A DNA stretch of 32,000 bases from Polynucleobacter sp. GWA2_45_21 (GTDB lineage: Bacteria > Pseudomonadota > Gammaproteobacteria > Burkholderiales > Burkholderiaceae). Numbering within the stretch: the first letter of the stretch is position 1; each line of letters begins with the position of its first letter. A program made the position numbers and the translations under genes. The stretch is taken from positions 1 to 32,000 of the forward strand of contig NZ_MHZG01000004.1 in the NCBI RefSeq assembly GCF_001830325.1, read 5' to 3'. A model generated the notes under the pieces. It was not told the DNA's origin, made no database searches, and saw only the letters and a program-made list of their open reading frames with translations. This document shows positions 1,429-14,438 of the stretch, one piece after another.

Positions 1429-1973
1429 ATCTCAAACTTCCCGATATGCAATTCTTCACATAAAAGACTTTCAATATCCGCTCTTAGCTCAATCTGCTTT
1501 TGCCCATCAATAATGTCTGAAATGAGCTGGGGAAAATCATCGTTTGATATGTGCGTGGAATCGGATAATGCTTGATAACGAGCTCGGGATTTGGTATAGC
1601 AGTAAAGCGCCTCGTTAAATAAGGCTTCCATTTCATGAAGATCAAGCAGGGCGCTTAAAGCTGCGCGAATACATAAAGCTGAATTCTTACTCATGAGCCA
1701 ATAGATGGAGCAATCCTTATCTGCTAGGCTAGTGGCTATAAATTCGATATGTTTTAGATTGCCGATGACCATATAGGAGCGATTTGGTCCGGTAAAGTTG
1801 AGATACCCATCTAAAATTTTGATGGCATCAAGCTCAGAATCAATTGTCCCAATTGGTTTTGAATGCCCGCGGATATAGATCTTCTGTGAAGATGAGCTAA
1901 TCATCTGAAAGTATTCTTGATCTATGCCATGGTCTGGGGTGTCAAAAACAAAGACTGTTCTAGGGTAGCGCAT
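1425..1973 (-). CDS. Hypothetical protein (distal gene of the clamp-loader-like operon)
   Basis: 182-aa ORF, co-oriented 46 nt downstream of the AAA+ gene. No motif recognised. Its stop overlaps the integrase 1 stop (TTAG). Confidence 0.55.
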   Translation of the reverse strand: MRYPRTVFVFDTPDHGIDQEYFQMISSSSQKIYIRGHSKPIGTIDSELDAIKILDGYLNFTGPNRSYMVIGNLKHIEFIATSLADKDCSIYWLMSKNSALCIRAALSALLDLHEMEALFNEALYCYTKSRARYQALSDSTHISNDDFPQLISDIIDGQKQIELRADIESLLCEELHIGKFEI

Positions 1974-2019
1974 ATTAATTCCTTATAAGTACTAGCCGGG
2001 AGGGCTAGTACTGGGGTCG

Positions 2020-2733
2020 TCAAGCAGCCATCAAGGGGTTAATGGGTTCTGGGGTAGGTGCCACCTCAATAATTCCGCCAGGGTTGCTCGGGGGGTTACG
2101 AACAGATCTAACAAAGTCCTCAAGACGCTCTAAAAGCTTTCTATTGCTGGAGCTTACTTGCAATTGCGTGGTCAGTACTTTGAGTAATTGATCATCTGGC
2201 AGGGCGATGCCTTCTTGTTGCAAAATCCACTGCGCTCGGAAAAGCCAGTCTTTTGCTGTTACTGGAGGCACAGCCAAGCAATTACTACGATCACGCAAAG
2301 CAATGTCAACTTGATCGATGTAGTTCGTTGTAAAGATGAACTGGGTATGACCAATCATGTCATCGATCACATCTCTAAAAGCTATTGCTGCTTTGGGGGT
2401 GAAGTTAATTTCGTTAGAAATGATGTAGTTGCGTTTTTGATCATTGATCGTAAACACCTGATAAAACATAGTTTGATCACCAAACGCCTGCATGACATCG
2501 TTGATAGAGTTAAATTCCACTGCTTTAAGACGGGTAACTTCTGCCTTTTTACCTTCGATGGCATCAGGTAATAAATTGGCAATGGTAGTTTTGCCAGTAC
2601 CAACCCCGCCGTGAAGGATGAGGGGTTTTAAGTCCCGATCATTGATGTAGTCAGATAGCCTATTTTTAAGGGTTTGACTTCCAATAACTACATCATCGAG
2701 AGTCTTAGGTGCATATTTGAGTGCGAAGCTCAT
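2020..2733 (-). CDS. Clamp-loader-like AAA+ ATPase (RFC small subunit / T4 gp44-like), short form
   Basis: N-terminal LKYAPKTLDDVV (RFC box II-like KYRPxxLddv). Walker A GGVGTGKTT. Sensor-1-like FIFTTN. LRDRSNC in the position of the SRC motif. The Walker B position reads IISNE (Asp replaced by Asn). Confidence 0.8.
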   Translation of the reverse strand: MSFALKYAPKTLDDVVIGSQTLKNRLSDYINDRDLKPLILHGGVGTGKTTIANLLPDAIEGKKAEVTRLKAVEFNSINDVMQAFGDQTMFYQVFTINDQKRNYIISNEINFTPKAAIAFRDVIDDMIGHTQFIFTTNYIDQVDIALRDRSNCLAVPPVTAKDWLFRAQWILQQEGIALPDDQLLKVLTTQLQVSSSNRKLLERLEDFVRSVRNPPSNPGGIIEVAPTPEPINPLMAA

Positions 2734-2808
2734 GGTATTTCCTTTCTGATTGGGTAAAAGCAGGGGTGAGCCAGTAAGTGCTACACCCCTGTCAAGACTT
2801 GCAAAGGC

Positions 2809-3585
2809 TTAAGCCATTTCTTTGAAGAAGGCTTGATTGGCTGCTTCAGTAATCGCCGCTTGCGCTGCGAGTTCTGCCTGGGCTTTAACATGCTCCTCGA
2901 CCTTGTTGAGCAATTCTTGCGCGATCTTGCGAATCGCTTGCTCAATCATGGCGCCAGACGAACCCGGAACAACGCTTAAGACCTGCGTTTGACCACTAGC
3001 TAGCATCTTGCCAATTAAGAGCGTGTATTCAGCAGAATCAGCTGGATGCGCTAAGGCAGTTTTTGGCACCAAACTCAACGGGTGTTGTAGTTGGTTAACT
3101 AATAATTGCTTAACCTCGGCAACCTTATTATCAAGCTGACTACGCTTTTTAATGGTCTCATCGGTAATGCCCTTAGTACTGGCTACTTCTTCAATACCGC
3201 CTACCTTGATTACCCATTCAGCGAAATTACCCACTGAAATCGACTCTTTAGCTGCTACTCGTAATGCACGGGAATAAGCAGAAGCGCGGCGGCGCTCAGC
3301 ATTAAATACGTACTTTACGATCAAGGTCAGTACTGGGGTGCTGGTTTGTACCTTAATGCCACGTCCTTCTAGATTGGCTTTAATACCTTCTAAAACGACT
3401 TTCTCAGCAGAGCTGCCTTTAATTTCGTAATACATACCAAGGCAATCCGAGAGAAGGGCGTAAAGCGCCTTATTGGATTTATCGTAAAAGTCCCGTTGCC
3501 AGACTTGACGACGGTTTGCTAATGCATCTAGTTTTACCAAAGTGGCGTTAGCGATTTCTTGCTTTTGATTTGCTGTGATTCTCAT
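2809..3585 (-). CDS. Hypothetical, mostly helical protein (first gene of the clamp-loader-like operon)
   Basis: 258-aa ORF preceded by a strong RBS (AAGGAG, 7 nt before the ATG at 3585). Ala/Glu/Gln-rich coiled-coil-like C-terminus. No family recognised. Confidence 0.65.
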   Translation of the reverse strand: MRITANQKQEIANATLVKLDALANRRQVWQRDFYDKSNKALYALLSDCLGMYYEIKGSSAEKVVLEGIKANLEGRGIKVQTSTPVLTLIVKYVFNAERRRASAYSRALRVAAKESISVGNFAEWVIKVGGIEEVASTKGITDETIKKRSQLDNKVAEVKQLLVNQLQHPLSLVPKTALAHPADSAEYTLLIGKMLASGQTQVLSVVPGSSGAMIEQAIRKIAQELLNKVEEHVKAQAELAAQAAITEAANQAFFKEMA

Positions 3586-3729
3586 GGTGTTGCTCCTTCA
3601 AGTTTTAAAAATACCAACACGTTTTAGCGAAAGTGCTGATGAAACTTTTTGTGTTGATGGAGTCACTGTATATTTTTGAGATTTTTCGAACAAATCACAG
3701 CGTTGTTTTATTTCCTTGACACAAAATTC

Positions 3730-3760
3730 CGAAAAATCAAAGCCCCATGAACAGGGGCTT
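3730..3760 (-). terminator. Putative rho-independent terminator (minus strand)
   Basis: Stem AAGCCCC/GGGGCTT (3740-3746 / 3754-3760) with a 7-nt loop, followed on the minus strand by TGATTTTTCGG. Confidence 0.4.
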
Positions 3761-3806
3761 GTAAGGTGTTTTTAACATTGAGAAAAAATCACTAAAAAAC
3801 TTCGTT

Positions 3807-3854
3807 TGAAAATTTCATACAAAATTAACTATGAAATTATTGTGAAAATTTTCA
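3807..3854. promoter_or_regulatory. Pair of AT-rich palindromes (candidate operators) in a 387-bp intergenic region
   Basis: TGAAAATTTCA (3807-3817) and the perfect palindrome TGAAAATTTTCA (3843-3854), 36 bp apart. Related GAAAAnTTTC-like words recur nearby. Confidence 0.3.
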
Positions 3855-3900
3855 GTGAAGTGTTTTCAATTTACTATTAATCTTAGGCGAAAACTTCGCT

Positions 3901-3936
3901 CTAAAAATAAAAAACCAGCCGGGTGATAGGCTGGTT
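3901..3936 (-). terminator. Rho-independent terminator of the TA operon (minus strand)
   Basis: Stem AACCAGCC/GGCTGGTT (3913-3920 / 3929-3936) with an 8-nt loop, followed on the minus strand by TTTTATTTTTAG. It lies 37 nt past the toxin stop. Confidence 0.6.
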
Positions 3937-3972
3937 GATCAGAGTCTAATTGCTGATTAGCTGCTTAGTTGA

Positions 3973-4302
3973 TTACTTTTTTCCGTAGGCGGCATCGTGG
4001 TCTGGCTCAATTAATAACACTCTAAGAAAGTGATCCTCTCTAAAGCCGATCCCCCGAATTGATTTGCTAACCCGAAACGAGTAGAGTGCATCGATACCCT
4101 TTGGGGCGGGGATACTATGAATCTTTTCCCATTTGAGACCTTTGTCACGGTAAACCTGGTTCCAGGTCAGTTGCGTGATCTTCTCAAAAGTAGCAAAGGC
4201 CTTCTCTTGTTCGGCTAACTCCAATGTCTCCCAGGTAGATTGAAAGACCGGGCTATTGAGATCAAGCTCAACTAATGGCTCAGGCTTTACGTTTCGTGCC
4301 AT
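3973..4302 (-). CDS. Putative type II toxin (RelE/ParE-superfamily-like)
   Basis: 109 aa, overlapping the upstream antitoxin gene by 23 nt. The C-terminal part YSFRVSKSIRGIGFREDHFLRVLLIEPDHDAAY resembles RelE/HigB-type toxin cores. The family assignment is tentative. Confidence 0.55.
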   Translation of the reverse strand: MARNVKPEPLVELDLNSPVFQSTWETLELAEQEKAFATFEKITQLTWNQVYRDKGLKWEKIHSIPAPKGIDALYSFRVSKSIRGIGFREDHFLRVLLIEPDHDAAYGKK

Positions 4303-4570
4303 GCGCTTTAGCCATTTTTAATTTAGAAAGATCAGTCGCTTTTGCCGGGGTTTTTTGTGCCCAAGCTAGAGCAGCCGATAAGTCCTTTTTAACGGCAGGC
4401 GTATGCATCCAACGTTCATTATCAGGAATAACCGTGGCTGTACGAATCACCCAAACCCCTGGCTCAGGCGTTTCTACTAGTACTTGACGTCCTGCATGCT
4501 CTTTACCAAGCGAAATTTGTCCGCTTGATCCAATCGACTTAATAACCTGGTGATCTATGACTGCGCCCAT
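4280..4570 (-). CDS. AbrB/MazE/SpoVT-type antitoxin
   Basis: 96 aa. The N-terminal swapped-hairpin-like segment IKSIGSSGQISLGKEHAGRQVLVE is followed by a basic tail. It lies upstream of and overlaps a small toxin-sized ORF. Confidence 0.7.
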   Translation of the reverse strand: MGAVIDHQVIKSIGSSGQISLGKEHAGRQVLVETPEPGVWVIRTATVIPDNERWMHTPAVKKDLSAALAWAQKTPAKATDLSKLKMAKAHGTKRKA

Positions 4571-4596
4571 GGCATTCTCCTATATTCATGCTGCAT

Positions 4597-4627
4597 GATT
4601 GCATTATAGCATGATTTTTATGCAATC
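4597..4627. promoter_or_regulatory. Inverted repeat GATTGCAT-N15-ATGCAATC in the TA promoter region (candidate autoregulatory operator)
   Basis: Perfect 8-bp arms at 4597-4604 and 4620-4627, 27-57 nt upstream of the antitoxin ATG. GCATGATT occurs twice. A minus-strand TATAAT lies at 4603-4608. Confidence 0.35.
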
Positions 4628-4683
4628 GGACTGACATTTCACCATGGCACAACCCTGGGCAAAGTCTTTGAGTCCGAACTCAC

Positions 4684-5250
4684 TTAGATCAGTTCAACGG
4701 CCTGTCTCTTTTGCTCATCATTGACATCGATGTACCTTTGAGTCACCGCAATGGATCGATGACCAGCTAATGAGGCTAAGATTCGCACGCCAATGCCTTT
4801 ATTAGCCAAGGTGGTGATAAAGAACTTCCTTCCAGAGTGGCTGCTACCACCACTGATGCCCACATTCTTATACAGCTGGTGAAACCAAACGCATAAGCCA
4901 TTTGGGCTAAAGCGTAAGCGGTGATCTGTGTGAAAAAAGGGGATATCAGCGCCTTTGGCGTGTCTTGTTGTGAGGTAGTTGGCTAACTCCACCTGCAAAC
5001 GCTGCGAAACAAAGACGGTTCTGGGATATTTGCCCTTGGTCTGGGCGGCTGAGAGGCGAATCTCATTTTTAATGGTGCCATCGGGGTTCACTACATCACC
5101 CATCGTTAAAGAGGCTATTTCGGCTACGCGAAGGCCTCCGAGAAAACTGGTAAGAATGATTGCGCGATCACGCAAGGCATATTTTTTGGTGCTGACGTAG
5201 TCTAGAACAATATCAAGTTCTGCTTGAGATAAGGTTTTTGCTTGTGCCAT
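4684..5250 (-). CDS. Catalytic-domain-only tyrosine recombinase (188 aa)
   Basis: GGLRVAEI (Arg), TKGKYPRTVFV (Lys), SHSGRKFFIT (HxxR), LAGHRSIAVTQRYIDV (His...Tyr). No N-terminal SAM-like or arm-binding domain. Confidence 0.85.
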   Translation of the reverse strand: MAQAKTLSQAELDIVLDYVSTKKYALRDRAIILTSFLGGLRVAEIASLTMGDVVNPDGTIKNEIRLSAAQTKGKYPRTVFVSQRLQVELANYLTTRHAKGADIPFFHTDHRLRFSPNGLCVWFHQLYKNVGISGGSSHSGRKFFITTLANKGIGVRILASLAGHRSIAVTQRYIDVNDEQKRQAVELI

Positions 5251-5306
5251 TTGTTTTTCCTGTCATAAATAAAATGTGCGTTTTAAGTATGTTTCCTTAA
5301 CGGGAA

Positions 5307-5318
5307 AAGGTCGACCTC
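5307..5318. repeat. Left arm AAGGTCGACCTC of a 12-bp perfect inverted repeat
   Basis: Its reverse complement equals GAGGTCGACCTT at 6295-6306. It lies in the leader/promoter region of the small recombinase gene. Confidence 0.5.
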
Positions 5319-5383
5319 AGTTTGTTTGCTAACTGTCGTGTAACAGGACAAAAAGATCTTCCAAGAATCAATGACTTACAAAT

Positions 5384-5415
5384 CGGGTTAAGAATATAGT
5401 TATTTTCTTAACCCG
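5384..5415 (-). terminator. Strong hairpin; putative terminator after the 177-aa gene (minus strand)
   Basis: Perfect 11-bp stem CGGGTTAAGAA/TTCTTAACCCG with a 10-nt loop. A second 6-bp hairpin GTCGTC-TTTA-GACGAC lies at 5455-5470. Confidence 0.45.
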
Positions 5416-5491
5416 TATTTGCTTATAAGTATTTAGCAATCTTCATTAAGATCTGTCGTCTTTAGACGACGACCTTAGCTAATGCTTCAAA

Positions 5492-6025
5492 TTACTGGAT
5501 AGCGTATTTTTGTAAGTTCTCAAGTGCTTGCTTATGCCCACCGACAAATACGCCGTTTGTAGACGGTTTTTGAGGGGAATTTAGCTCTGATTGCGTTGTG
5601 GCTATCAGTGCTGGGGTGGGTTTGCCGGGAATTCTGGCAATACAGCTGCGGATTGGCAATTCCCAGTAATCATTTATTCCGTGCTCTGAATCTTTAATTT
5701 CAATATAAATTCTGCTGTAGTTCATATCCAAAGACGCATATCCCTCAATAGGGCTTTTTGAGCCATTCTCGTAGCGGTAGATCCAACTCATCAATACTCC
5801 ATCCTCATTAGCTGGGATATTGCTTAAGCGTCCTGCCATTTCCACATGCACTGGACTCTTTGGAAAGTGAAACCAGGCTTCAACTTCCTCAAAATCTACT
5901 AAATACTTGGCATAAGGATTGGGGATCTCTAATGTGCCGTTATAGATGGCCTTGCGATATTGACCTTTGCCGAAGGTTGTTCCGTACATCTTGTTTTCCC
6001 ATAAGCGGGCTGTGATTTCTTTCAT
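5492..6025 (-). CDS. Hypothetical protein
   Basis: ORF 5492..6076. I prefer the ATG at 6025 (MKEITARLW...), which follows AAGGAG by 7 nt. No family recognised. Confidence 0.6.
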   Translation of the reverse strand: MKEITARLWENKMYGTTFGKGQYRKAIYNGTLEIPNPYAKYLVDFEEVEAWFHFPKSPVHVEMAGRLSNIPANEDGVLMSWIYRYENGSKSPIEGYASLDMNYSRIYIEIKDSEHGINDYWELPIRSCIARIPGKPTPALIATTQSELNSPQKPSTNGVFVGGHKQALENLQKYAIQ

Positions 6026-6060
6026 TTTTAATCTCCTTGAATATTGAAAGGAGTCGCGGT

Positions 6061-6205
6061 GTTGCTTGAGATGCAAGGAGTAGCAGAGACAAAAGATAGT
6101 TGCTGTTGCTTGAGTTGCTGTTCAGAGCTACTCATTTGCCCCCAATACAGCAACTAACTGCATCTCTTACTGCAACTTATTTCTTCTTCGCATCTCAATG
6201 CAACT
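6061..6205. repeat. Repeat-dense divergent control region (AGTTGC/GCAACT words)
   Basis: AGTTGCTGTT occurs twice (6098-6107, 6113-6122). The opposite orientation appears as CAGCAACT (6148-6155), GCATCTCTTACTGCAACT (6160-6177) and GCATCTCAATGCAACT (6190-6205). GTTGCTTGAGATGC (6061-6074) is a near-inverted repeat of 6190-6204. Confidence 0.45.
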
Positions 6206-6294
6206 CATTACGCGACTCGTAAATATTTAGCCCTTGTTAATAAAAACCATATTTTTTATGTCCAAAATGAGCCGATTTGCTCGTGATCTAAAAA

Positions 6295-6306
6295 GAGGTC
6301 GACCTT
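6295..6306. repeat. Right arm GAGGTCGACCTT of the 12-bp perfect inverted repeat
   Basis: Reverse complement of 5307-5318. It abuts the likely -35 region of the 6368 gene. Confidence 0.5.
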
Positions 6307-6367
6307 AAAAAGCTCTGAAATTAACCTGTATATAGGCAATCACGCCATTGATCACAAGGAGATGCAT

Positions 6368-6808
6368 ATGAGTCAATTAAGTAGCCTCAACCTAGTAGCA
6401 GTCAAAAAGCCGATGCACCAACCAGCCATTGTTATTCGTAGGAATAAGTTATCTAGTCATTTGTGGGAGCAGATTCAATTAGCAAAAGGGCAGTTATCGG
6501 GAACCCCATTTGTATTAATGAAGTTCCGTAGCATTAAGGATGCTCACACAGGGGTGCGTAAGCAAGTGGAGGTTCCCAAGAGGATCAAGCCTTGGTGGTT
6601 TCAGACGGAGGAGGGCAAAGTATGCGTGTCCATTAAATATGGAGCGCGAATACTTGAGTTAGCAAAAGGCAAACCCAGTATTCAAGTTGATAGTGCAGAA
6701 GATTTAATTAAGGCACTTGAAGCGGTTAAGGTTGCAGTAGAAGCAGGTGATTTAGATGCACAAATTGAAAATGCTAGTGACTTATTAAGAGCTGGATTTC
6801 GTAGGTAA
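6368..6808 (+). CDS. Hypothetical protein (looks like a conserved proteobacterial family of unknown function)
   Basis: ORF 6362..6808. The ATG at 6368 has proper spacing from AAGGAG (6356-6361). Motifs: VEVPKRIKPWWF and AVEAGDLDAQIE. It is co-oriented 70 nt upstream of integrase 3. Confidence 0.65.
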   Translation: MSQLSSLNLVAVKKPMHQPAIVIRRNKLSSHLWEQIQLAKGQLSGTPFVLMKFRSIKDAHTGVRKQVEVPKRIKPWWFQTEEGKVCVSIKYGARILELAKGKPSIQVDSAEDLIKALEAVKVAVEAGDLDAQIENASDLLRAGFRR

Positions 6809-6878
6809 GCTGGGGGATCTCAAATTCAAGGTGGCGCCTATTGCTGAGTAATCCAACTTTACTTTAATAAGGAAAACT

Positions 6879-7904
6879 ATGCGAGCAGTTGTAATAAAAC
6901 CCCATCCAATCGTCTTTGACAAAGTTGAAAGATTAATTAATGTCAATGGTATGAATTTTGAAGAAGAGTTTATTGCTAAGGTTATTGGCGAGCATTTAGC
7001 AAGGCAAAAAAGTGGCAAGCTACCCACGATTACAGATGCTTTTGAAATCTATATGCATGAAGCTAAATCTTCTCATCGCCCAACATTTGTGAAGCATGCT
7101 AACTACCATTTTCGTAGCTTTAAAGAGTTCTTTGGTGATTTAACATTAGAAGAGCTCAAGCATTGGCATATTACGGAATATAGAGATTACCAACTTAACA
7201 GAGGCATAAGCCCTACGAGCGTTCGTAAACACAACAATACTTTGAACGCTATGCTCAATGTCGCATTTAAACATTTAGATATAGATAGGCTAAGTCCTTT
7301 TAGGGCATTAAAAATTAGAGGTGAGGGTGAAACAAAGCGTTCTATGCCAATCATTACCACTCAGTTAATACAGCAAGTAAAAGAGCATTTGTTAAAAAAC
7401 TCGACTGCACATAAGCTGGTGGCACTGATACAGCTCAATACGGGATTTAGGTTGAGCGAACCTTTGTTTGCGAGATTGGAAGATTGTGTCTTGGATCATG
7501 ATATTCCGCACTTGTGGATTAGGCGAAATGTCCTAAGCGACAGAAAGACCAAATCCAGTATTAGAGCCGTGCCGCTATGCGGCGTGTCACTAGATGCTGC
7601 AAAAGAGCTATATAAGATTGCAAAAATGAAAAACAGCGACTGGTTTGTGCCGCATTACGCAAGAGATAATGGAAATTCTAGTTGCTCCCAAATTATTAAG
7701 AAAACACTTAAACAATTTGACTTTAAGAGTCATATGTTTAGGCATGCCATTATTGACAGAATGAAGGCTCGTAATGACATACCTACACGTCTAGCAGAAA
7801 GCATTACAGGGCATAGTAGTGGCGGGAGTGAATTTAATATGTATGGGACTGTTGGCTACACACTGGAGCAAAAGAGGGATGTAATTTTGAAGGTATTAAT
7901 TTAA
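6879..7904 (+). CDS. Tyrosine-type recombinase/integrase (island integrase 3)
   Basis: SAM-like N-domain (HITEYRDYQLNRGISPTSVRKHNNTLNAMLNVA). Catalytic GFRLSEP, HMFRHAIIDR (HxxR), ITGHSS, and a Tyr in NMYGTVGYT. Confidence 0.85.
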   Translation: MRAVVIKPHPIVFDKVERLINVNGMNFEEEFIAKVIGEHLARQKSGKLPTITDAFEIYMHEAKSSHRPTFVKHANYHFRSFKEFFGDLTLEELKHWHITEYRDYQLNRGISPTSVRKHNNTLNAMLNVAFKHLDIDRLSPFRALKIRGEGETKRSMPIITTQLIQQVKEHLLKNSTAHKLVALIQLNTGFRLSEPLFARLEDCVLDHDIPHLWIRRNVLSDRKTKSSIRAVPLCGVSLDAAKELYKIAKMKNSDWFVPHYARDNGNSSCSQIIKKTLKQFDFKSHMFRHAIIDRMKARNDIPTRLAESITGHSSGGSEFNMYGTVGYTLEQKRDVILKVLI

Positions 7905-7939
7905 GCATAAGGGCGTCTAGTTGCTAGAGGCCCTTATGC
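7905..7939 (+). terminator. Hairpin immediately after the integrase 3 stop
   Basis: Perfect 10-bp stem GCATAAGGGC/GCCCTTATGC with a 15-nt loop. There is no clear U-tract, so terminator function is uncertain. Confidence 0.4.
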
Positions 7940-7975
7940 ATACTGCTTTACGGTTAAGAAAAGCTAAATATCTAT

Positions 7976-8122
7976 ATGAAAAGATATAAGGCAACCGTCA
8001 ATGCAGCAGGGATGTGGGTAGAAACGATTTTGTACGCCCAAAATCAAGCCCAGGCATACAAGTTGTTTCAAGCTATCTTTGGCGCTAAAAACGTGCCACA
8101 TCAACCCTTGCAGATTGGTTAA
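7976..8122 (+). CDS. Possible small protein (48 aa), below the ORF-track cutoff
   Basis: ATG...TAA reading MKRYKATVNAAGMWVETILYAQNQAQAYKLFQAIFGAKNVPHQPLQIG. Protein-like composition but no clear RBS. Confidence 0.3.
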   Translation: MKRYKATVNAAGMWVETILYAQNQAQAYKLFQAIFGAKNVPHQPLQIG

Positions 8123-8124
8123 CT

Positions 8125-8304
8125 ATGAGATTCGATGAAATAGCACCCATAAAGCCCCTAAGCCCAGAACAAGCCAGACTTAAATCAATGAAGGATCGAG
8201 TAAAGCGAGATCAAGAGGCTATAAAGGCTGAGCGGGCTAGACAAAAGATCAAGGCTGGGCAGGCGGAGTTGAGTTTGATTTCGAAACCTGGTCTTGCAAA
8301 CTAA
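8125..8304 (+). CDS. Possible small basic protein (59 aa), below the ORF-track cutoff
   Basis: Starts 2 nt after the previous small ORF's stop: MRFDEIAPIKPLSPEQARLKSMKDRVKRDQEAIKAERARQKIKAGQ... Overlaps the 3' end of the convergent SRPBCC gene by 56 nt, which weakens the call. Confidence 0.2.
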   Translation: MRFDEIAPIKPLSPEQARLKSMKDRVKRDQEAIKAERARQKIKAGQAELSLISKPGLAN

Positions 8305-8758
8305 TGGCTAGTTGTTTTAGAGTTGTGAGGTTATTGATCCACTTTGTGTAGTAACCACGATTCCAAAGCCAGCTTACTACGTTCATATCTTTAAAATGAG
8401 CATCTACTGTCAGTTCCGTTCCATTTTGAAATGGCCTTAAGTTAAATATTATGGTTTCAGCAAGCGAGGAGGATGATGGGTAAAGTTGCTTAGTCAGGGC
8501 GGTAGTCGCTATCAATTTCTGACATTTGACAACTAGAATATAGACGTAGGTACTATGGACTTCTCTACCATTAATGATTGATGAAATGGTTGTGTGTCCA
8601 CATGCTGAGACATTCATTTCAACAACTCTACCTTGGTGTGGTGATATCCACCACCATTTTGAAAGCAATTGTGGTTCAGTAAGGAATCTCCAAACCACAT
8701 TTGGGGTGGCACTTATTTGTATTGTTTCTTTTAGGTGCGGTAATTTATTTTCTGTCAT
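8249..8758 (-). CDS. SRPBCC (START/AHSA1-like) ligand-binding-fold protein
   Basis: N-terminal signature ISATPNVVWRFLTEPQLLSKWW, typical of AHSA1/SRPBCC proteins. 26 nt downstream of and co-oriented with the MBL gene. Confidence 0.65.
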   Translation of the reverse strand: MTENKLPHLKETIQISATPNVVWRFLTEPQLLSKWWWISPHQGRVVEMNVSACGHTTISSIINGREVHSTYVYILVVKCQKLIATTALTKQLYPSSSSLAETIIFNLRPFQNGTELTVDAHFKDMNVVSWLWNRGYYTKWINNLTTLKQLAISLQDQVSKSNSTPPAQP

Positions 8759-8784
8759 TTTGTATGGCTATCGATTGCTTAACT

Positions 8785-9939
8785 CTATGCTTCTTGATCA
8801 TCTGGGTAATGTGCTGGTTCAGCAGGGCCCCAACCAGTTCGAGGGGGTGCTTTATGGCTATGGCGAAGATGCTTTCCTTCTGTTTTGACTAACTTCCCCC
8901 CTCTATGAATTATTGCGCGAATGACTGATTTCCTGGGATGGTTAGCATCTTTCTTTGCTGCACTCACGACTGCCGTAAATTGCTCTTCTCCGGGTAGAGG
9001 TTTATTTTTTAGTATGGGCCCAAGAATCTCATCAAGAATTTCTGACGAAACATTTCTTCTGGATCCATGGTGAGGAACTTGAAAAAAATTGATTCCAGGA
9101 AATTGAATTCCAATTGTTGTTGCATAGTTAATTGAACTTCTCAGCGCTGCTTTTCCTGCATCACCAGTTAATAAAACTTTTCTTCCATGTAAATTCGCAT
9201 ACTGAACAATGCTCATTTCATTCTCTGGGCTAGTCTCTTCTTGAGATAGGTTCTCGTCACCCCATGCTGACTTGATAAATTCAACTGTTTTTGAATAAAT
9301 TTCACCAAGAGTGGAGAGTGGTGATGTCATAAAGCTGTTGAGTGTAGTCTGAGGTAAGGGTATAGGGTATGGCAATGTAGTAAGCCCCGCCCTCTGAATA
9401 TTCTCAGCTATGTTTTTTGCGTCTGGAGTTTTTGGTGAATCTACAATTAGATCGAGGTAAGCCTTTTTTGATGGCGATAAAACTATAAATTCACCAATTT
9501 TTTTTCCTTGAAAGGGCTCTCTGATTTCAATTCCATTTTCGATCGCAATTTTTTCAAGAGCATCAATATTTGAATAAATTTCTCGCAATTTTTTTTGCAA
9601 GCTTTCAACGGACGCATACCTGCTGAAGCGATGAATAATTTCATGGGCATAGTCCCATGGTTTAAGCATCCAAAGGGTGCCAACTTCATATTCTTCAAGA
9701 ATTTTTCTTAATCCGCCAGCATGGTCTTGATCATTGTGTGTGAGAACTACATGATTGATATGAATTGGGTCATCATAATGCTCATTAATATGGGTAACGA
9801 GAATATTCCCTGTATCCTGAAACCCACCGTCTACAACATGAATATACGTTGCTCCATTAAGTTTATATCTTAGGCAAATTGCATCACCACTCTTATCTGA
9901 ATCAACATCCAAAATATCTATCTCATAAAAATCATCCAT
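8785..9939 (-). CDS. Standalone ComEC/Rec2-type MBL-fold metallo-hydrolase (putative nuclease)
   Basis: ORF 8785..9978. I prefer the ATG at 9939 (MDDFYEIDIL), after GAGGG. Motif series: DKSGDAICL, VVLTHNDQDHAGGL, VLLTGDAG, FQVPHHGSRRN, matching the ComEC C-terminal MBL domain pattern. No ComEC channel domain is present. Confidence 0.85.
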   Translation of the reverse strand: MDDFYEIDILDVDSDKSGDAICLRYKLNGATYIHVVDGGFQDTGNILVTHINEHYDDPIHINHVVLTHNDQDHAGGLRKILEEYEVGTLWMLKPWDYAHEIIHRFSRYASVESLQKKLREIYSNIDALEKIAIENGIEIREPFQGKKIGEFIVLSPSKKAYLDLIVDSPKTPDAKNIAENIQRAGLTTLPYPIPLPQTTLNSFMTSPLSTLGEIYSKTVEFIKSAWGDENLSQEETSPENEMSIVQYANLHGRKVLLTGDAGKAALRSSINYATTIGIQFPGINFFQVPHHGSRRNVSSEILDEILGPILKNKPLPGEEQFTAVVSAAKKDANHPRKSVIRAIIHRGGKLVKTEGKHLRHSHKAPPRTGWGPAEPAHYPDDQEA

Positions 9940-10399
9940 TTTTACCCTCATGTTTTTCTGATTGTTTGGATGGCTCAATTCCCCATACTGATTGACCTAT
10001 AGACTCAATTTTTGATAGTGTTTTATCTACATTTAAGCCGGCCAAAAAGGCTAATAGCCAAATCCCAAGCTGATGTAGCTCCCCTTGATTTGCATTTAAG
10101 AAAAGGAGCCCTGACTTTATTAATAGATAGCTTATGCCCCCTAAGGCAAGACTTAAAAATGGCCTTATGAGATACCAAGGCGCCCAGTCAGAATCCCATT
10201 TCTTGCGAACGCATGCATTGAGGTAGACCCCTCGCAAACAATAGATGGTGCCGCCAAGACCCCCAAAGAGGATGCTTAGCAGTATGTTTTTAAGTGCAAC
10301 TGGTACAGCGTCGGGATGACAAAAGCTCAGATAAAATAGTGCAAACGTTACAAGTCCAAGCTCAATAAGTAATAAAACAGAAATAATCCACTTGCTCAT
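9932..10399 (-). CDS. Small integral membrane protein (about 4 TM helices)
   Basis: 155 aa with four hydrophobic segments and Gly-rich helix motifs (FGGLGGTIY, ALGGISYLL). Its stop overlaps the MBL start by 8 nt (ATGGATGA). Confidence 0.75.
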   Translation of the reverse strand: MSKWIISVLLLIELGLVTFALFYLSFCHPDAVPVALKNILLSILFGGLGGTIYCLRGVYLNACVRKKWDSDWAPWYLIRPFLSLALGGISYLLIKSGLLFLNANQGELHQLGIWLLAFLAGLNVDKTLSKIESIGQSVWGIEPSKQSEKHEGKNG

Positions 10400-10603
10400 A
10401 AAAACCTCAAAATGTTCTTTTTTTTATAAAGATACCTGAGATATCAATTCTTTCAAGAGCTTTTTGGAAAATAAGTGCAAATTGCTATGCTAGCGTCGCG
10501 AAACCGGGTTCCTAGCGTCCCATGTATATCTTTTCCTAGGCATGCGGGAGCAAATCCCTATAGAAATTTGAATAAGTTCGCCAGGCTGATAAGATTGGAA
10601 ATT

Positions 10604-10984
10604 ATGAGAATTTATCGCAATATTTCCGAGTCCAAACGGCAAACCACTGATTACGATGTTTTATGGAATGGTGAGGACCAAGGATTAATAACATCTTGGG
10701 AAACCGGAAGGGATAAGGCAAAGTCAGACCCAGAATTGGCTGCAAGAGCTAAAAATGGTGAATTAGTTATGTTGGGTTGGAAGGGTGGCGTGGGTAAGCC
10801 CCTCAAAACTAAGAATAAATATGGTGGTCTGCTTTATGTGGCTATGTGGCAGGGTCTTCGTGGGGAAAATCTGGATATAGATCTAGAGAGTGAAATACGA
10901 ATGATATGCACACGAACAGGTGTGCCTGTTACCTATACCTCTAACGTTAAATTACTTTGCGCTTCTGAGGAGTCCGATGACTAA
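10604..10984 (+). CDS. Hypothetical protein, translationally coupled to the exonuclease-BRCT gene
   Basis: ORF 10475..10984 (GTG). Alternative ATGs lie at 10487 and 10604 and the start is uncertain. Its stop overlaps the next start by 8 nt (ATGACTAA). No family recognised. Confidence 0.5.
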   Translation: MRIYRNISESKRQTTDYDVLWNGEDQGLITSWETGRDKAKSDPELAARAKNGELVMLGWKGGVGKPLKTKNKYGGLLYVAMWQGLRGENLDIDLESEIRMICTRTGVPVTYTSNVKLLCASEESDD

Positions 10985-12131
10985 GGTATTAGTGCTTGAT
11001 ACAGAGACTAGCGGAGTTTCTAGCTCGGACGAGCCCATTGAAATAGCTGCAGCTTTATATGAAGTAGATTCGACCGGCAATTTAGTTGCAAAGCTAGATA
11101 CTTACAGCGGTAGGCGTGAGCCAACGGTCCCGATTAGTTTTATGGCGCAAAAGGTTCATAAAATCTCTAAAGCAGACCTTGCTGGTCGGGATTTCGATCA
11201 CGAGAAAGTTGCGGTTTTACTATCTAATGCTGATGTTATTGTTGCGCACAACGCTGATTTTGATAGTCGAATGCTTCAGCCGCTTTACCCTGGAATCAAG
11301 GATAAATCCTGGCGCTGCACCATCAACCAATGGCCTTGGCCATTTGCATCGGGGAAATCTTTATCTTCGGTTGCGTCGGCATTAGATATCCCACAAATTA
11401 ATGCCCATTCAGCAGAAGGAGATGTAGATACATTAAGTGCTTGTCTTTTCCATTCCACAGGCAATGGAAATTACCTTAAAAATCTTTTGACCGCAAACGA
11501 TTACGTATTTAAAAACACATCTGAAAATGCCTATCAGAGAGCCGCAAGTAGCCTTACGCCTAAGGTAAGTGAGGCCTGCAAGAGCTTATTAGATATTGTT
11601 GGTGCCGTAATCTCGGATAGGCATTTACATGATTCTGAAATCATGTTTGTTAATGACTGGATTAAGGCGAATCCTACAGTTTCAACTTCGTGGCCTGGGA
11701 GTGTGATTGCGCAGCAACTTAAGCAAATACTTTCCGATAGAATAGTTTCAGAAAATGAGCGCAGCTCTTTGTTGAATAGTCTGAGTGCAATTACTGCGGG
11801 CGCTCTTGCTAAAGTCTCGCAGGTTGCTGAGGAGATCGATTTTCATCCAGACGAGCTAGATGTAATTGAATTTGCATCCCATACCTTTTGTTTAAGTGGA
11901 AATTTTCTATTGGGCGATAAGGATAAGTGTGCCAATGAGATCTCCAAGAGGGGTGGTTTGATACTGGCTGGTGTCACTAAAAAGTTAAATTACTTGGTAG
12001 TGGGCGGCTTAGGCAGCGATCAATGGAAGCATGGTAATTTTGGCGCTAAAGTCGAGAAAGCTATTCAATATCGCTCCGATGGCATTCCCATAAAGATAGT
12101 TCACGAAGAATCTTTGGTGAAATTTCTATAA
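10977..12131 (+). CDS. DEDDh 3'-5' exonuclease (DnaQ/epsilon-like) fused to a helical middle module and a C-terminal BRCT domain
   Basis: ATG 10977 after GAGGAG. ExoI VLVLDTETSG, ExoII IVAHNADFDSRML, ExoIII HSAEGDVDTL. The middle has duplicated SDRxxxxxE helices (ISDRHLHDSE, LSDRIVSENE; TerB-like, tentative). The C-terminus FCLSGNFLLGDKDKCANEISKRGGLILAGVTKKLNYLVVG...KVEKAIQY is BRCT-like. Confidence 0.85.
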   Translation: MTKVLVLDTETSGVSSSDEPIEIAAALYEVDSTGNLVAKLDTYSGRREPTVPISFMAQKVHKISKADLAGRDFDHEKVAVLLSNADVIVAHNADFDSRMLQPLYPGIKDKSWRCTINQWPWPFASGKSLSSVASALDIPQINAHSAEGDVDTLSACLFHSTGNGNYLKNLLTANDYVFKNTSENAYQRAASSLTPKVSEACKSLLDIVGAVISDRHLHDSEIMFVNDWIKANPTVSTSWPGSVIAQQLKQILSDRIVSENERSSLLNSLSAITAGALAKVSQVAEEIDFHPDELDVIEFASHTFCLSGNFLLGDKDKCANEISKRGGLILAGVTKKLNYLVVGGLGSDQWKHGNFGAKVEKAIQYRSDGIPIKIVHEESLVKFL

Positions 12132-12156
12132 CAAGTGTCTCGAAACAGGACACTTG
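12131..12156 (+). repeat. Hairpin-forming 26-nt repeat, copy B: ACAAGTGTC-TCGAAACAG-GACACTTG
   Basis: Begins on the last base of the exonuclease stop codon. The stem is extendable to 10 bp (AACAAGTGTC/GACACTTGTT). No U-tract follows. Confidence 0.7.
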
Positions 12157-12244
12157 TTAGTTATAAAACCCTCTAGATCAGGGCTAGACAGTTATCAATC
12201 ACGTAACTAAACTGAGCCAGCCCTTCAGTTGCCAAAGGCTTTTA

Positions 12245-12619
12245 ATGAAATACTCTGTATTCCTGGGATTACTGCTAGCGGCTGGACTAGTCAATGCCGC
12301 CAGTTATGACTGTACAGCTACGAGAAAGCTGGACTTTGAGAATGTCTACCAGCCAGCTCAAATGGAAAAGTACAAGTTTTCCTTCAGAATCCACGATTCA
12401 GACAAACCCAAAGTCGATAGATGCAGTATTAAACCCAACGACAATAAAGTCACTTGTGATTCCTACGATATTGATAGGGTAGAAGTAGATAAGCATGTGG
12501 GATACAAGAAGTTCTACTTATTTAGAAGTCAGTACGACATTCAACTCTTTCCAGACTTGAGGTTTGTTGAAAACAACGGTCGTGGTGGAATTGCTTTTGG
12601 GACTTGTAAATTACTATGA
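12245..12619 (+). CDS. Small secreted protein of unknown function
   Basis: Signal peptide MKYSVFLGLLLAAGLVNA|ASYDC. The mature part has four Cys. Confidence 0.65.
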   Translation: MKYSVFLGLLLAAGLVNAASYDCTATRKLDFENVYQPAQMEKYKFSFRIHDSDKPKVDRCSIKPNDNKVTCDSYDIDRVEVDKHVGYKKFYLFRSQYDIQLFPDLRFVENNGRGGIAFGTCKLL

Positions 12620-12783
12620 TGAATGAATACTCTGGGGTAGGCTTTTTCTTGTTTGGGATCTTCTGTGCTTATTGGGCGCAGACAACCAATCGCAATGCTT
12701 GGCTTTGGTTCTTTATGGGATTCTTCTTTGCCCCAATAACTGGGTTGGTATTGCTTTATAAGAATTCGTCGAAGAATGGTTGA
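12616..12783 (+). CDS. Possible 55-aa two-helix membrane peptide (below the ORF-track cutoff)
   Basis: ATG overlaps the upstream stop (ATGATGA). Sequence MMNEYSGVGFFLFGIFCAYWAQTTNRNAWLWFFMGFFFAPITGLVLLYKNSSKNG has two hydrophobic stretches. Confidence 0.45.
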   Translation: MMNEYSGVGFFLFGIFCAYWAQTTNRNAWLWFFMGFFFAPITGLVLLYKNSSKNG

Positions 12784-12798
12784 TTTTTTCTTGGAGCC

Positions 12799-13497
12799 AT
12801 GTCTGTGACTGATGCCAATGTTTCTGTGTCATCTTTGGAGGCTGTTTCTGCAGTTGACTCAATTCAATCAAGAGTTATTTCAAGTCTATCAATTACACAT
12901 TTTTTATCTGCAGCATCTTTTTCAAGAAAAGTTGGCCAGTTAGAGACTGACCATGTTGGTGAAGTGTTTGGGGATTTCTTTGAGGAAATACAGTCTTTTT
13001 CTATTGCTACGATATTTTCGTTGGTAGCCGCTTTGGAGGCTTACGCTAACGAGCTATTTGTTCTATATAAAGACGTTATATTCCCCGATTTACGAATTGA
13101 TGTTGTTGCTAAGCTGTGGGAGTTGTACGAAAAAAAGCCAACTGTTGAGAAGTATGACTTGGCATTATTCCTTGCAAATAAACCTGCCTTAGAAAAAGGC
13201 GGTCGACCTTATCAAGATATTGATGCGCTAATTAAACTCAGAAATGGTTTTGTTCATTACAGACCAGAGTGGTCTGATGAGCAAGTAGAGCATCGAAAAA
13301 TTTCTGTAGCTATATCTGGTAAAGCAATTGGCAGTTCGTTTTATCCAACGGAAACACCTTTATTTCCAAGAGCGTGGTCTAGTCATAAAACCTTATTGTG
13401 GGCTCTAAATAATTCGATTGAATTTGTGGAGAAATTTGAATCGCAAATGGGGATTTCTAGCAATCTTTTACCTTTTAAAGATCGGTTAAGGGGTTGA
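12799..13497 (+). CDS. Putative HEPN-domain protein (predicted RNase fold)
   Basis: Rx4H motif LRNGFVH (R148..H153; nt 13240-13257) in a helical context. Upstream segment LVAALEAYANELF resembles the acidic helix of Abi-type HEPN families. Confidence 0.55.
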   Translation: MSVTDANVSVSSLEAVSAVDSIQSRVISSLSITHFLSAASFSRKVGQLETDHVGEVFGDFFEEIQSFSIATIFSLVAALEAYANELFVLYKDVIFPDLRIDVVAKLWELYEKKPTVEKYDLALFLANKPALEKGGRPYQDIDALIKLRNGFVHYRPEWSDEQVEHRKISVAISGKAIGSSFYPTETPLFPRAWSSHKTLLWALNNSIEFVEKFESQMGISSNLLPFKDRLRG

Positions 13498-13498
13498 T

Positions 13499-14176
13499 AT
13501 GTTGAAGTATTTGAAAACATGCCCCATAGAAGCTAATTTAATTGCCTTGATAGCGTTGGTAATCCTTGGAATTAAGGTTATTTTCTTAAATTCTATTCCT
13601 GCATCAAGTCAGCTGATATATGATTTTGGTGTAGTTTTCGATGCAATTTTGATTTCAGTTTTAGCTAGTTTTATTTTTTATTTCTTTGTAGTTCATCTCA
13701 AAGCAGTATCAGATAGAAAAACTATCTGGCCATATGTTGGGAGGCATTCCAATTCGATAACTGGATCTTGCCTTGGGCAATTGTCGGAAATAAGCAAGGC
13801 TTCCAGTGTTGCTCTCACATTGAAAAACTTGAACGTCGAAGACGTTAGCTTAGCATTTGCAAAAATTCACCCCTACTCAGAGGCACCATTGCGCATAGGT
13901 TATCCTGGTGTTGCAGCAAATTGGATTCAATACTTTGAATATCACAATCGAAGAAGTAGAGTTGCAATTGGAAGGGTATTAGGGCAACTCATATATTTGG
14001 AGCCGAAGCATGTAAGCCTTATTAATGCTATAGATGATTGTGCTCACTTCATGGTTATCGATGGCTTTGGTAGCCATCAAGTCTCCAATACTGATCTTAC
14101 CGCTTGGTCAAGTTCGTTTTGCGACTACTGCATTTTTTGTCGAGAGCTTGATGATTATTTAAAGAAGTTTGATTAA
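13499..14176 (+). CDS. Membrane-anchored protein (2 N-terminal TM helices + ~150-aa soluble domain), unknown function
   Basis: Starts 1 nt after the HEPN gene stop (TGAtATG). TM segments LIALIALVILGIKVIFL and VVFDAILISVLASFIFYFFVV. Confidence 0.65.
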   Translation: MLKYLKTCPIEANLIALIALVILGIKVIFLNSIPASSQLIYDFGVVFDAILISVLASFIFYFFVVHLKAVSDRKTIWPYVGRHSNSITGSCLGQLSEISKASSVALTLKNLNVEDVSLAFAKIHPYSEAPLRIGYPGVAANWIQYFEYHNRRSRVAIGRVLGQLIYLEPKHVSLINAIDDCAHFMVIDGFGSHQVSNTDLTAWSSSFCDYCIFCRELDDYLKKFD

Positions 14177-14199
14177 TCATGATTGTCGGCTTACCCGAC

Positions 14200-14224
14200 A
14201 AACTGTCGCGTTTCGAGACGCTCG
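14200..14224 (-). repeat. Degenerate copy C of the hairpin repeat, opposite orientation
   Basis: The reverse complement CGAGCGTCTCGAAACGCGACAGTTT matches copy B at 19/25 positions, including a 10-nt run GTCTCGAAAC. The stem is not conserved. Confidence 0.45.
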
Positions 14225-14319
14225 CGGTCCATGAGTCTCACCCAGCGTAGATCATCCCCACTTGAAACGTCCATTCAGTTCCGCATTGTTCCAAGCAGTG
14301 ACCATGACATTTCAAATAG

Positions 14320-14355
14320 CCAAAAGAAAAGGGACCACATTGCTGTGATCCCTTT
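14320..14355 (-). terminator. Putative terminator downstream of tRNA-Lys (minus strand)
   Basis: Stem AAAGGGA/TCCCTTT (14349-14355 / 14328-14334) with a 14-nt loop, followed on the minus strand by TCTTTTGG. Confidence 0.4.
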
Positions 14356-14362
14356 GTATTAC

Positions 14363-14438
14363 TGGTGGGTCGGGCGAGATTCGAACTCGCGACCAACGGA
14401 TTAAAAGTCCGCTGCTCTACCGACTGAGCTACCGACCC
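14363..14438 (-). tRNA. tRNA-Lys (anticodon UUU), CCA encoded
   Basis: Minus-strand sequence GGGTCGGTAGCTCAGTCGGTAGAGCAGCGGACTTTTAATCCGTTGGTCGCGAGTTCGAATCTCGCCCGACCCACCA folds as a cloverleaf. Acceptor GGGTCGG/CCGACCC, D arm GCTC/GAGC, anticodon stem GCGGA/TCCGT with loop CTTTTAA, T arm GCGAG/CTCGC with TTCGAAT. Confidence 0.95.

Follow-up and report, generated by a model that had tools for sequence, protein, structure and literature searches.

A putative HEPN-type ribonuclease gene and an adjoining gene for a two-transmembrane-helix protein in an exchanged gene block of a Polynucleobacter tRNA-Lys island

HEPN ribonucleases (RNases) are core effectors of bacterial immunity, as in Cas13, Csm6, Abi proteins and HepT, and are a source of RNA tools. 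The present analysis concerns two adjoining genes, encoding a HEPN-like protein (protein A) and a protein with two N-terminal transmembrane (TM) helices (protein B), at the edge of an island in Polynucleobacter sp. GWA2_45_21 (contig NZ_MHZG01000004.1, positions 1 to 32,000, forward strand; this whole stretch of 32,000 nucleotides (nt) is termed the window). As a theme, mobile islands that combine a HEPN RNase with a membrane component are not new, and both protein families described here are without curated annotation. The reading preferred here, at a probability of roughly 45%, is that a small hydrophobic protein (tm55), A and B are compact, horizontally exchanged conflict-system cargo in which A and B would act as a membrane-associated RNase module. 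Taken by itself, a conflict-system role (abortive infection or toxin) is somewhat probable; functional coupling of A and B is proposed tentatively.

Among the described systems, Cas13b-Csx28 (PDB 8gi1), in which Csx28 works as a pore, resembles this locus in concept, namely in combining a HEPN RNase and a small membrane protein. Protein B was considered as a relative of Csx28 and rejected, the Foldseek match being insignificant (E 1.7, probability 0.21), and no cas gene or CRISPR array was seen among the open reading frames (ORFs) of the window. According to PMC12948488, which cites Fillol-Salom et al. (2022), a HEPN-TM defence system is encoded on phage-inducible chromosomal islands (PICIs). 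The likeness to that system, by architecture alone, is a HEPN protein together with a TM component carried as defence cargo on an integrase-bearing island (PMC12948488); the differences are that the present locus comes from a freshwater betaproteobacterium rather than an enterobacterium, and that the PADLOC models gave no match here. For membrane-associated HEPN proteins of the HEPN-TM fusion type, a surface stimulus has been proposed to drive RNA degradation (PMC3710099). A cytoplasmic HEPN domain at the inner membrane would be common to those fusions and the present locus, whereas A and B are separate polypeptides and the B family is mostly independent of HEPN.

The block consists of four genes (lengths in amino acids, aa):

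12245-12619, forward strand: sec124 (ORF call), 124 aa, with an N-terminus resembling a signal peptide and with four Cys residues
12616-12783, forward strand: tm55 (ORF call), a 55-aa hydrophobic protein with about two TM helices
12799-13497, forward strand: protein A, 232 aa, all-alpha and HEPN-like, a predicted RNase of an unannotated family
13499-14176, forward strand: protein B, 225 aa, two N-terminal TM helices, of a large unannotated family

The start of tm55 overlaps the stop of sec124 by 4 nt, tm55 ends 15 nt ahead of A, and the start codon of B follows the stop codon of A after a single base. The ribosome-binding site of B sits inside the 3' end of A, which together with the 1-nt gap suggests that A and B may be co-translated. 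A first-pass annotation of the DNA had proposed a two-gene system of a HEPN protein and a 2TM protein here; the elements on which it built are all present, namely the 232-aa ORF with LRNGFVH at nt 13240-13257, the next gene 1 nt after its stop, and the preceding pair of a secreted protein and a peptide (sec124 and tm55). No notable family match of sec124 was found in Pfam, NCBIfam or PADLOC.

The motif RNGFVH corresponds to R148-H153 of A (nt 13240-13257). In proteins of the window the chance level is 0.26 Rx4H and 0.05 RNxxxH per 232 aa. A bare Rx4H is thus common and not significant, and the evidence is therefore its conservation, not the motif itself. Homologues of A numbered 64 by single-sequence search and 230 by profile search, all named 'hypothetical' and none with a Pfam domain on record. 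Twelve positions are invariant in 45 homologues (E80, N84, E85, K118, G134, R148, H153, W158, F189, P190, W201 and F213). In 58 full-length members from bacteria and archaea (21-45% identity), E80, R148, N149, H153 and P156 are invariant and N84, E85, K118, Q139, E157 and W201 are conserved in more than 90%, giving the family signature LEAxxNE ... LRNxLxHxKPEW. The conserved Rx4-6H motif, a criterion of the HEPN superfamily, is therefore found across both sets (45 and 58 sequences), and the dependence of the first-pass proposal on conservation of R148 and H153 in homologues was borne out down to 21% identity.

The structural model of A points in the same direction. An AlphaFold model based on the family alignment is confident and all-alpha (predicted local distance difference test, pLDDT, 87.5; predicted template-modelling score, pTM, 0.83). 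The helix-2 motif LVAALEAYANELF (residues 75-87, nt 13021-13059), which holds E80, N84 and E85, lies in the long helix 60-89, and this is the acidic helix upstream of Rx4H that had been pointed out earlier. Helices 100-112 and 115-125 form a hairpin insert between helices 60-89 and 138-152, and R148 and H153 are placed at the end of helix 138-152. In HEPN domains, Rx4-6H is located at the end of core helix 3 or the start of the next loop, the conserved acidic residue, when present, is in helix 2 beside that motif, and helices 2 and 3 are often separated by an insert, for instance a helical hairpin (PMC3710099). All three of these features are matched by the predicted model of A.

Comparisons with curated libraries agree in direction, not in strength. 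HEPN_RiboL-PSP is the sole recurrent Pfam match of the A family; it matches 14 of the 58 members at sub-threshold levels (best E 2.2e-4), the next family reaching at most 6/58, and gives 11.9 bits (E 0.21) with A of the window. Assignment of A to PF18735 was rejected, as 11.9 bits compares with a gathering threshold of 28.4 bits, which makes A a distant relative at most. RiboL-PSP-HEPN and other members of the HEPN superfamily resemble A in having RNxxxH at the end of core helix 3, an acidic or polar position in helix 2 and an insert between helices 2 and 3, and in being all-alpha, sporadic and tied to defence or mobile elements; besides its subthreshold score, A differs in that no L-PSP/RidA partner was seen among its neighbours and in that its family has the extra conserved residues P156, E157, W201, K118 and Q139 and about 80 aa more at the C-terminus. 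In PADLOC-DB 2.0 the only match of A is RTasHEPN (E 0.046, residues 70-166). In a Foldseek search of the PDB, three of the top four probabilities (0.47-0.51) belong to HepT/HEPN toxins (5yep_C, 6m6w_G, 8xdj_B, 7bxo), two additional 7bxo chains reach 0.30-0.35 and the HEPN domain protein 4nqf 0.16; target-normalised TM-scores against the HEPN toxins are 0.47-0.55 with E of 0.7-3, and these matches are thus not significant. HepT-MntA is the system to which A bears the closest structural resemblance in the PDB (5yep, 6m6w, 7bxo, 8xdj; E at least 0.7), and HepT proteins are likewise small Rx4-6H RNase toxins, whereas A is about 100 aa longer and has no adjacent MNT gene. The earlier assignment of A as HEPN-type is thus upheld by the invariant Rx4H, the layout of the model and the HEPN_RiboL-PSP and HepT matches taken together, no profile or fold match being significant by itself, and A is quite likely a HEPN-superfamily protein of a family outside the curated models.

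The distribution of the A family is wide and sporadic. A pattern-limited genome scan, with one genome per species for 185,579 species, identified 70 A-family loci, in hosts ranging from Gallionella to Nocardia, Microcoleus, Planctomycetota and ANME archaea and thus including actinobacteria and cyanobacteria. The neighbourhoods are unrelated to each other, often at contig ends or beside mobile or defence genes, and three copies are on IMG/VR viral contigs. These results bear on the possibility that A is not a conflict-system nuclease at all but a helical protein whose R/H site serves RNA or nucleotide binding or housekeeping RNA processing, with B unrelated to it. All links of A to HEPN are below significance thresholds and non-catalytic and housekeeping HEPN domains exist (PMC3710099), as this explanation would have it; the sporadic distribution, the unrelated neighbourhoods, the three viral copies and the strict invariance of the catalytic-type residues argue against it and make it very improbable. 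With more than 230 proteins in bacteria and archaea, a sharp signature and a confident model, the A family is covered by no curated library.

For protein B, a word-index search found four relatives only, and an exhaustive profile search yielded 827 representative clusters at E <= 1e-3, 112 of them below 1e-30. Hydropathy indicates two N-terminal hydrophobic helices and, after them, a soluble domain of some 125-150 aa, and the AlphaFold model (pLDDT 96.5) agrees, as the first-pass annotation had stated for this protein; in the model, TM1 (10-28) is followed by a 65-residue helix (38-102) that comprises TM2 and a stalk, a beta-hairpin (128-141) and four more helices. In 90 members, G44, F60, Y61, H66, P130, W142, Y210 and L217 are nearly invariant; H66 is at the end of TM2 within ...FYxxVVHxKExxDK, and an IDDCxHF motif is common in the family. 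The C-terminal domain would be cytoplasmic by the positive-inside rule, because of K3 and K6 on the one hand and K68, R73 and K74 on the other.

No meaningful Pfam match was obtained for any of the 90 B members, B had no PADLOC match, a Foldseek search of its model against the PDB found no relative (best E 0.48) and comparison with PDB sequences gave chance matches only. Three unnamed viral proteins in BFVD (A0A3G8FEA3, A0A8S5VW53 and A0A516M1U8) share the fold (Foldseek probability 1.0, E 5e-4 to 1e-2), and the fold of B is therefore also phage-encoded; B-family members are also encoded on two IMG/VR contigs. Searches with tblastn found no match of B in plasmid collections and, in phage collections, one weak match in an uncultured phage. 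The B family is thus large, unannotated and of the 2-TM type, and its predicted fold is new.

Evidence that A and B belong together comes from comparison of the window with other loci and contigs (denoted by L-numbers such as L009, L012, L085 and L135). The order sec124-tm55-A-B and the 1-nt gap between A and B are kept in four genomic contexts, with 81-97% DNA identity over about 12135-14407, a shared stretch of about 2.2 kb:

First context, the window: after the DEDDh exonuclease gene, beside a complete tRNA-Lys
Second context, L012/L013: after the same exonuclease gene, beside genes for a reverse transcriptase, an STM3845 family protein and an FRG protein
Third context, L009/L010: between SHOCT/MarR genes and TctC
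Fourth context, L014 (a Gallionella metagenome-assembled genome, MAG): near a tRNA-Thr

In L014, only 12177-14330 is shared with the window and the flanks differ, and a cluster look-up added Polynucleobacter MAGs to the carriers of A-B. In L009 (10850-10894) and L012 (8818-8862) the cassette is followed by 45 nt that repeat the 3' end of tRNA-Lys, a complete tRNA being absent, and L014 has a 37-nt copy beside the tRNA-Thr. These fragments look like remnants of att sites, which would mean that the block was moved by tRNA-targeting integrative elements. In L135/L136 the flanks (window 12132-12647 and 14242-14304) and a 91%-identical sec124 are kept, and a single gene for a 476-aa DUF8370 protein stands in place of tm55-A-B; the swap region (L135 3884-5971) adjoins GmrSD and an NmeDI-type restriction-modification (R-M) system. 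As sec124 is retained in this swap, tm55-A-B behaves as one cargo unit of a variable hotspot and sec124 is part of the frame. tm55 accompanies A and B in L009, L010, L012, L013 and L014 and is lost together with them in L135.

Several results weigh against the preferred reading of tm55-A-B as cargo with a cooperating A-B module. Regarding protein A, no profile or fold match to HEPN is significant (Pfam below the gathering threshold; Foldseek E at least 0.7), A and the profiles A1 and A7 gave only chance matches to PDB sequences (antibody chains, huntingtin, tropomodulin), and PADLOC-DB 2.0 recognises neither A nor B as a component of a known system. Regarding the pairing, A and B adjoin each other only within one close lineage, represented by MAGs of Gallionella and Polynucleobacter and with at least 75% protein identity, so that recent shared ancestry, rather than selection, might account for the conserved pairing; among the A-family loci fetched (69 genome loci, 3 viral loci and 8 from contig look-ups), all others are without B, tm55 and sec124. 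The A family has no recurrent partner, as the Pfam families of 150 neighbours of A homologues number 116, none of which occurs more than twice, and an A-family hidden Markov model (HMM) run with hmmsearch over 41 B-family loci found no A-family gene; several B homologues are clearly solitary. As the A and B families are normally apart, both probably work alone in most genomes.

Clustering of neighbours within three genes on either side in more than 70 A-family loci likewise gave clade-specific synteny only and no conserved partner. The neighbours of A-family genes include transposases, type I R-M and SocA/Panacea genes, none of them recurrent, and those of B-family genes include AbiEii, HNH, Mrr, HigA-like antidote and terminase genes. 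The expectation that the gene pair would recur elsewhere thus largely failed, the other A-family loci lacking B and the 41 B-family loci lacking A. Stated as a conserved two-gene system, the first-pass proposal is not supported, A-B being found only in relatives of at least 75% identity; block exchange of tm55-A-B and the HEPN-like genes near B-family genes give the pairing partial support. The A-B pairing is local, not a widespread two-gene system.

The main competing explanation, which is considered rather unlikely, is that A and B are independent single-gene conflict systems stacked in a defence hotspot, A being a self-contained HEPN abortive-infection protein and B a self-contained membrane effector or exclusion protein, so that the 1-nt spacing would reflect compaction and co-transcription only. 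Both families are overwhelmingly found without each other, B genes lie beside many unrelated genes and A genes beside nothing recurrent, the first gene of the cassette, sec124, is separable, and single-protein HEPN defence systems are well documented (PMC13092281). Against this, tm55-A-B is gained and lost as one block with the same order and spacing in four contexts, and HEPN-like neighbours are commoner for B genes than for other genes of the same loci.

With regard to HEPN-like neighbours, four independent B loci besides the cassette each have a different HEPN-like gene within two genes of B. In L105, the protein at position -1 carries IRNAAAH and gives DUF4145 (5e-4), HEPN_Swt1 and RiboL-PSP matches, all sub-threshold; in the L102/103/104 group, a 178-aa protein with LRNRAGH is at position -1 after a 12-nt gap; in the L114/118 group, a 135-aa protein with RNVTAH is at position -2; and in L085, a 280-aa protein with RNPLAH is at position +2. 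The last protein is probably the Hypoth_Ymh Pfam match found among B neighbours, and Ymh is a HEPN family (PMC3710099). RNxxxH is present in 6/14 upstream B neighbours vs 4/185 other genes of the same loci (raw Fisher p = 7e-6), a crude measure of enrichment that a conservative recount lowers, to the detriment of the preferred reading, to about 3/12 after the two cassette copies are merged and a spurious high-GC ORF and an HNH protein are dropped. Other upstream neighbours of B-family genes encode HNH nucleases and AbiEii. Alignment of the A-family profile with single neighbour proteins (L102, L105, L088, L085, L114) by hhalign gave nothing usable, single-sequence templates being without power.

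A broader reading, judged unlikely, takes the B family as a widespread, structurally new inner-membrane partner that is interchangeably paired with different cytoplasmic nucleases. Its basis is the 827 clusters, the confident fold without a PDB relative and the phage-encoded structural relatives, and the nucleases that might pair with B comprise HNH, AbiEii and no fewer than four separate HEPN-like families. If this were true, B would be a generic membrane module of abortive infection, acting as sensor or executioner, and tm55-A-B would exemplify it with a nuclease from a new HEPN family.

The mechanism that would follow from the reading of A-B as a membrane-associated RNase module is modelled on the logic proposed for HEPN-TM fusions (PMC3710099). 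Protein A would be a cytoplasmic, metal-independent RNase of the HEPN fold and of a new family, with an active site composed of R148 and H153, probably helped by N149 and by E80, N84 and E85 of helix 2, and most likely formed across a putative dimer as in other HEPN enzymes. Protein B would be an inner-membrane protein, co-translated with A, whose helical domain faces the cytoplasm and which may contact A so as to tether or gate it at the membrane; tm55 is perhaps part of the same module. An event at the envelope or membrane, for example phage genome entry or membrane perturbation, might then release or activate RNA cleavage and lead to growth arrest. An anti-phage phenotype of the cassette is predicted on this basis.

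The same gene arrangement might instead represent a toxin-antitoxin-like addiction module that stabilises the island, in which A is an RNase toxin neutralised at the membrane by B or tm55 and phage defence plays no part. HEPN RNases are classic toxins, as in HepT/MntA (PMC7641770, PMC4621449), and tightly coupled genes on a mobile element beside integrases, with the module at the very edge of the island, would be suited to this function. However, known type II pairs have a dedicated antitoxin that tracks the toxin, whereas most A homologues are without a conserved neighbour, so that a constitutively toxic A would not be tolerated. There is also no adjacent MNT nucleotidyltransferase: no nucleotidyltransferase domain was found in the window neighbours tm55 and B, nor among the 25 commonest families of the 150 A-homologue neighbours. 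An addiction module is thus quite improbable.

The block lies at one end of an island that spans roughly 130 to 14221, for which tRNA-Lys is the insertion site. Other features of the block and the island are as follows:

12135-12152, forward strand: repeat copy B, GTGTCTCGAAACAGGACA, within a 29-nt palindrome directly after the exonuclease gene
12185-12213, forward strand: a weak sigma-70-like promoter match before the four-gene block, with 9/12 positions matching the consensus
14184-14221: two adjoining hairpins 3' of protein B, TTGTCGGCTTACCCGACAA followed by inverted repeat copy C (14204-14221)
14363-14438, reverse strand: tRNA-Lys(UUU), the insertion site of the island (tRNA calls, Rfam)
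91-1428; 4684-5250 (reverse strand); 6879-7904: three tyrosine recombinase genes
2020-2733, reverse strand: an AAA ATPase
3973-4302, reverse strand: an NsnC-like fragment, a 109-aa ORF that matches the C-terminal portion of the NsnC model in PADLOC (E 3e-10)
8249-8758, reverse strand: an AHSA1-like gene
8785-9978, reverse strand: an MBL-fold protein, the PADLOC candidate defence component PDC-M48B (E 4e-156)
10920-12131 as listed, with a probable ATG start at 10977, forward strand: a DEDDh 3'-5' exonuclease (PADLOC DEDDh 3.5e-22, PDC-S48 6e-17)

The region has fewer sigma-70-like consensus matches than its shuffles. The GC content is 0.37-0.40 across the block vs about 0.47 on the chromosomal side, and Rfam detected tRNA only over the whole window.

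The 18-nt repeat GYGTCYCGAAACNYGACA is present at 190-207 (forward), 12135-12152 (forward) and 14204-14221 (reverse), that is, three times in the window vs 0.15 expected, a count reached in 0/100 shuffles. Copies B (12135-12152) and C (14204-14221) are inverted to each other and bracket the four genes, as had been noted in the initial annotation. The copy B hairpin has a folding energy of -15.1 kcal/mol (z = -4.4), and copy B is the left edge of the DNA common to other contigs, with homology starting at 12135 (L009) and 12132 (L135). A second hairpin, TGTCGGnTTACnCGACAA, is located beside the repeat at 130-147 and 14184-14202. The pair of hairpins (TGTCGGnTTACnCGACAA and GYGTCYCGAAACNYGACA) is found at both ends of the island of about 14 kb (130-207 and 14184-14221). 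The hairpin motifs might mark out cargo slots, either as recombinase sites or as terminators; integron attC sites were considered and rejected, as the hairpins are much shorter (about 29 nt) and fit R''/R' cores poorly.

Three tyrosine-recombinase genes lie within 8 kb, one of them a 188-aa ORF with the catalytic domain only, and this number suggests that the island is a composite of several integrated elements at one tRNA-Lys site. The NsnC-like 109-aa ORF is possibly a remnant of another defence gene. The gene for the MBL-fold protein is flanked by the AHSA1-like gene and an unannotated 155-aa gene (9932-10399, reverse strand). The exonuclease is matched also by Pfam RNase_T and NCBIfam, its last 90 aa are similar to the BRCT end of NAD-dependent DNA ligase (LigA) and DNA polymerase III epsilon-like proteins, and PDC-S48 is a single-gene PADLOC defence candidate. 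In L012, an exonuclease copy 85% identical to that of the window is directly upstream of the cassette, and both the exonuclease gene and a 169-aa ORF (10475-10984) are kept there. Genes for the reverse transcriptase (RVT_1), the STM3845 family protein and the FRG-domain protein (L012 1464-3370, reverse strand) are a few kb from that cassette; STM3845 is the toxin of a Salmonella retron. An AHSA1 gene lies beside the reverse-transcriptase pair in L012, as the AHSA1-like gene lies beside PDC-M48B in the window.

The island is thus mobile and rich in candidate defence genes, which fits, but does not prove, a conflict-system role of its cargo. Defence-type genes near the cassette or its hotspot are PDC-M48B and DEDDh/PDC-S48 in the window, the reverse transcriptase, STM3845 and FRG genes in L012 and GmrSD with the R-M system in L135; the A family at large has no recurrent neighbour among 150.

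If A and B cooperate, they would provide a tractable two-polypeptide example of membrane-coupled RNA degradation, which was proposed in 2013 for HEPN-TM fusions and has barely been tested. If they do not, the locus would still illustrate neatly how cargo is swapped in nature, here in a tRNA-linked defence hotspot of freshwater betaproteobacteria.

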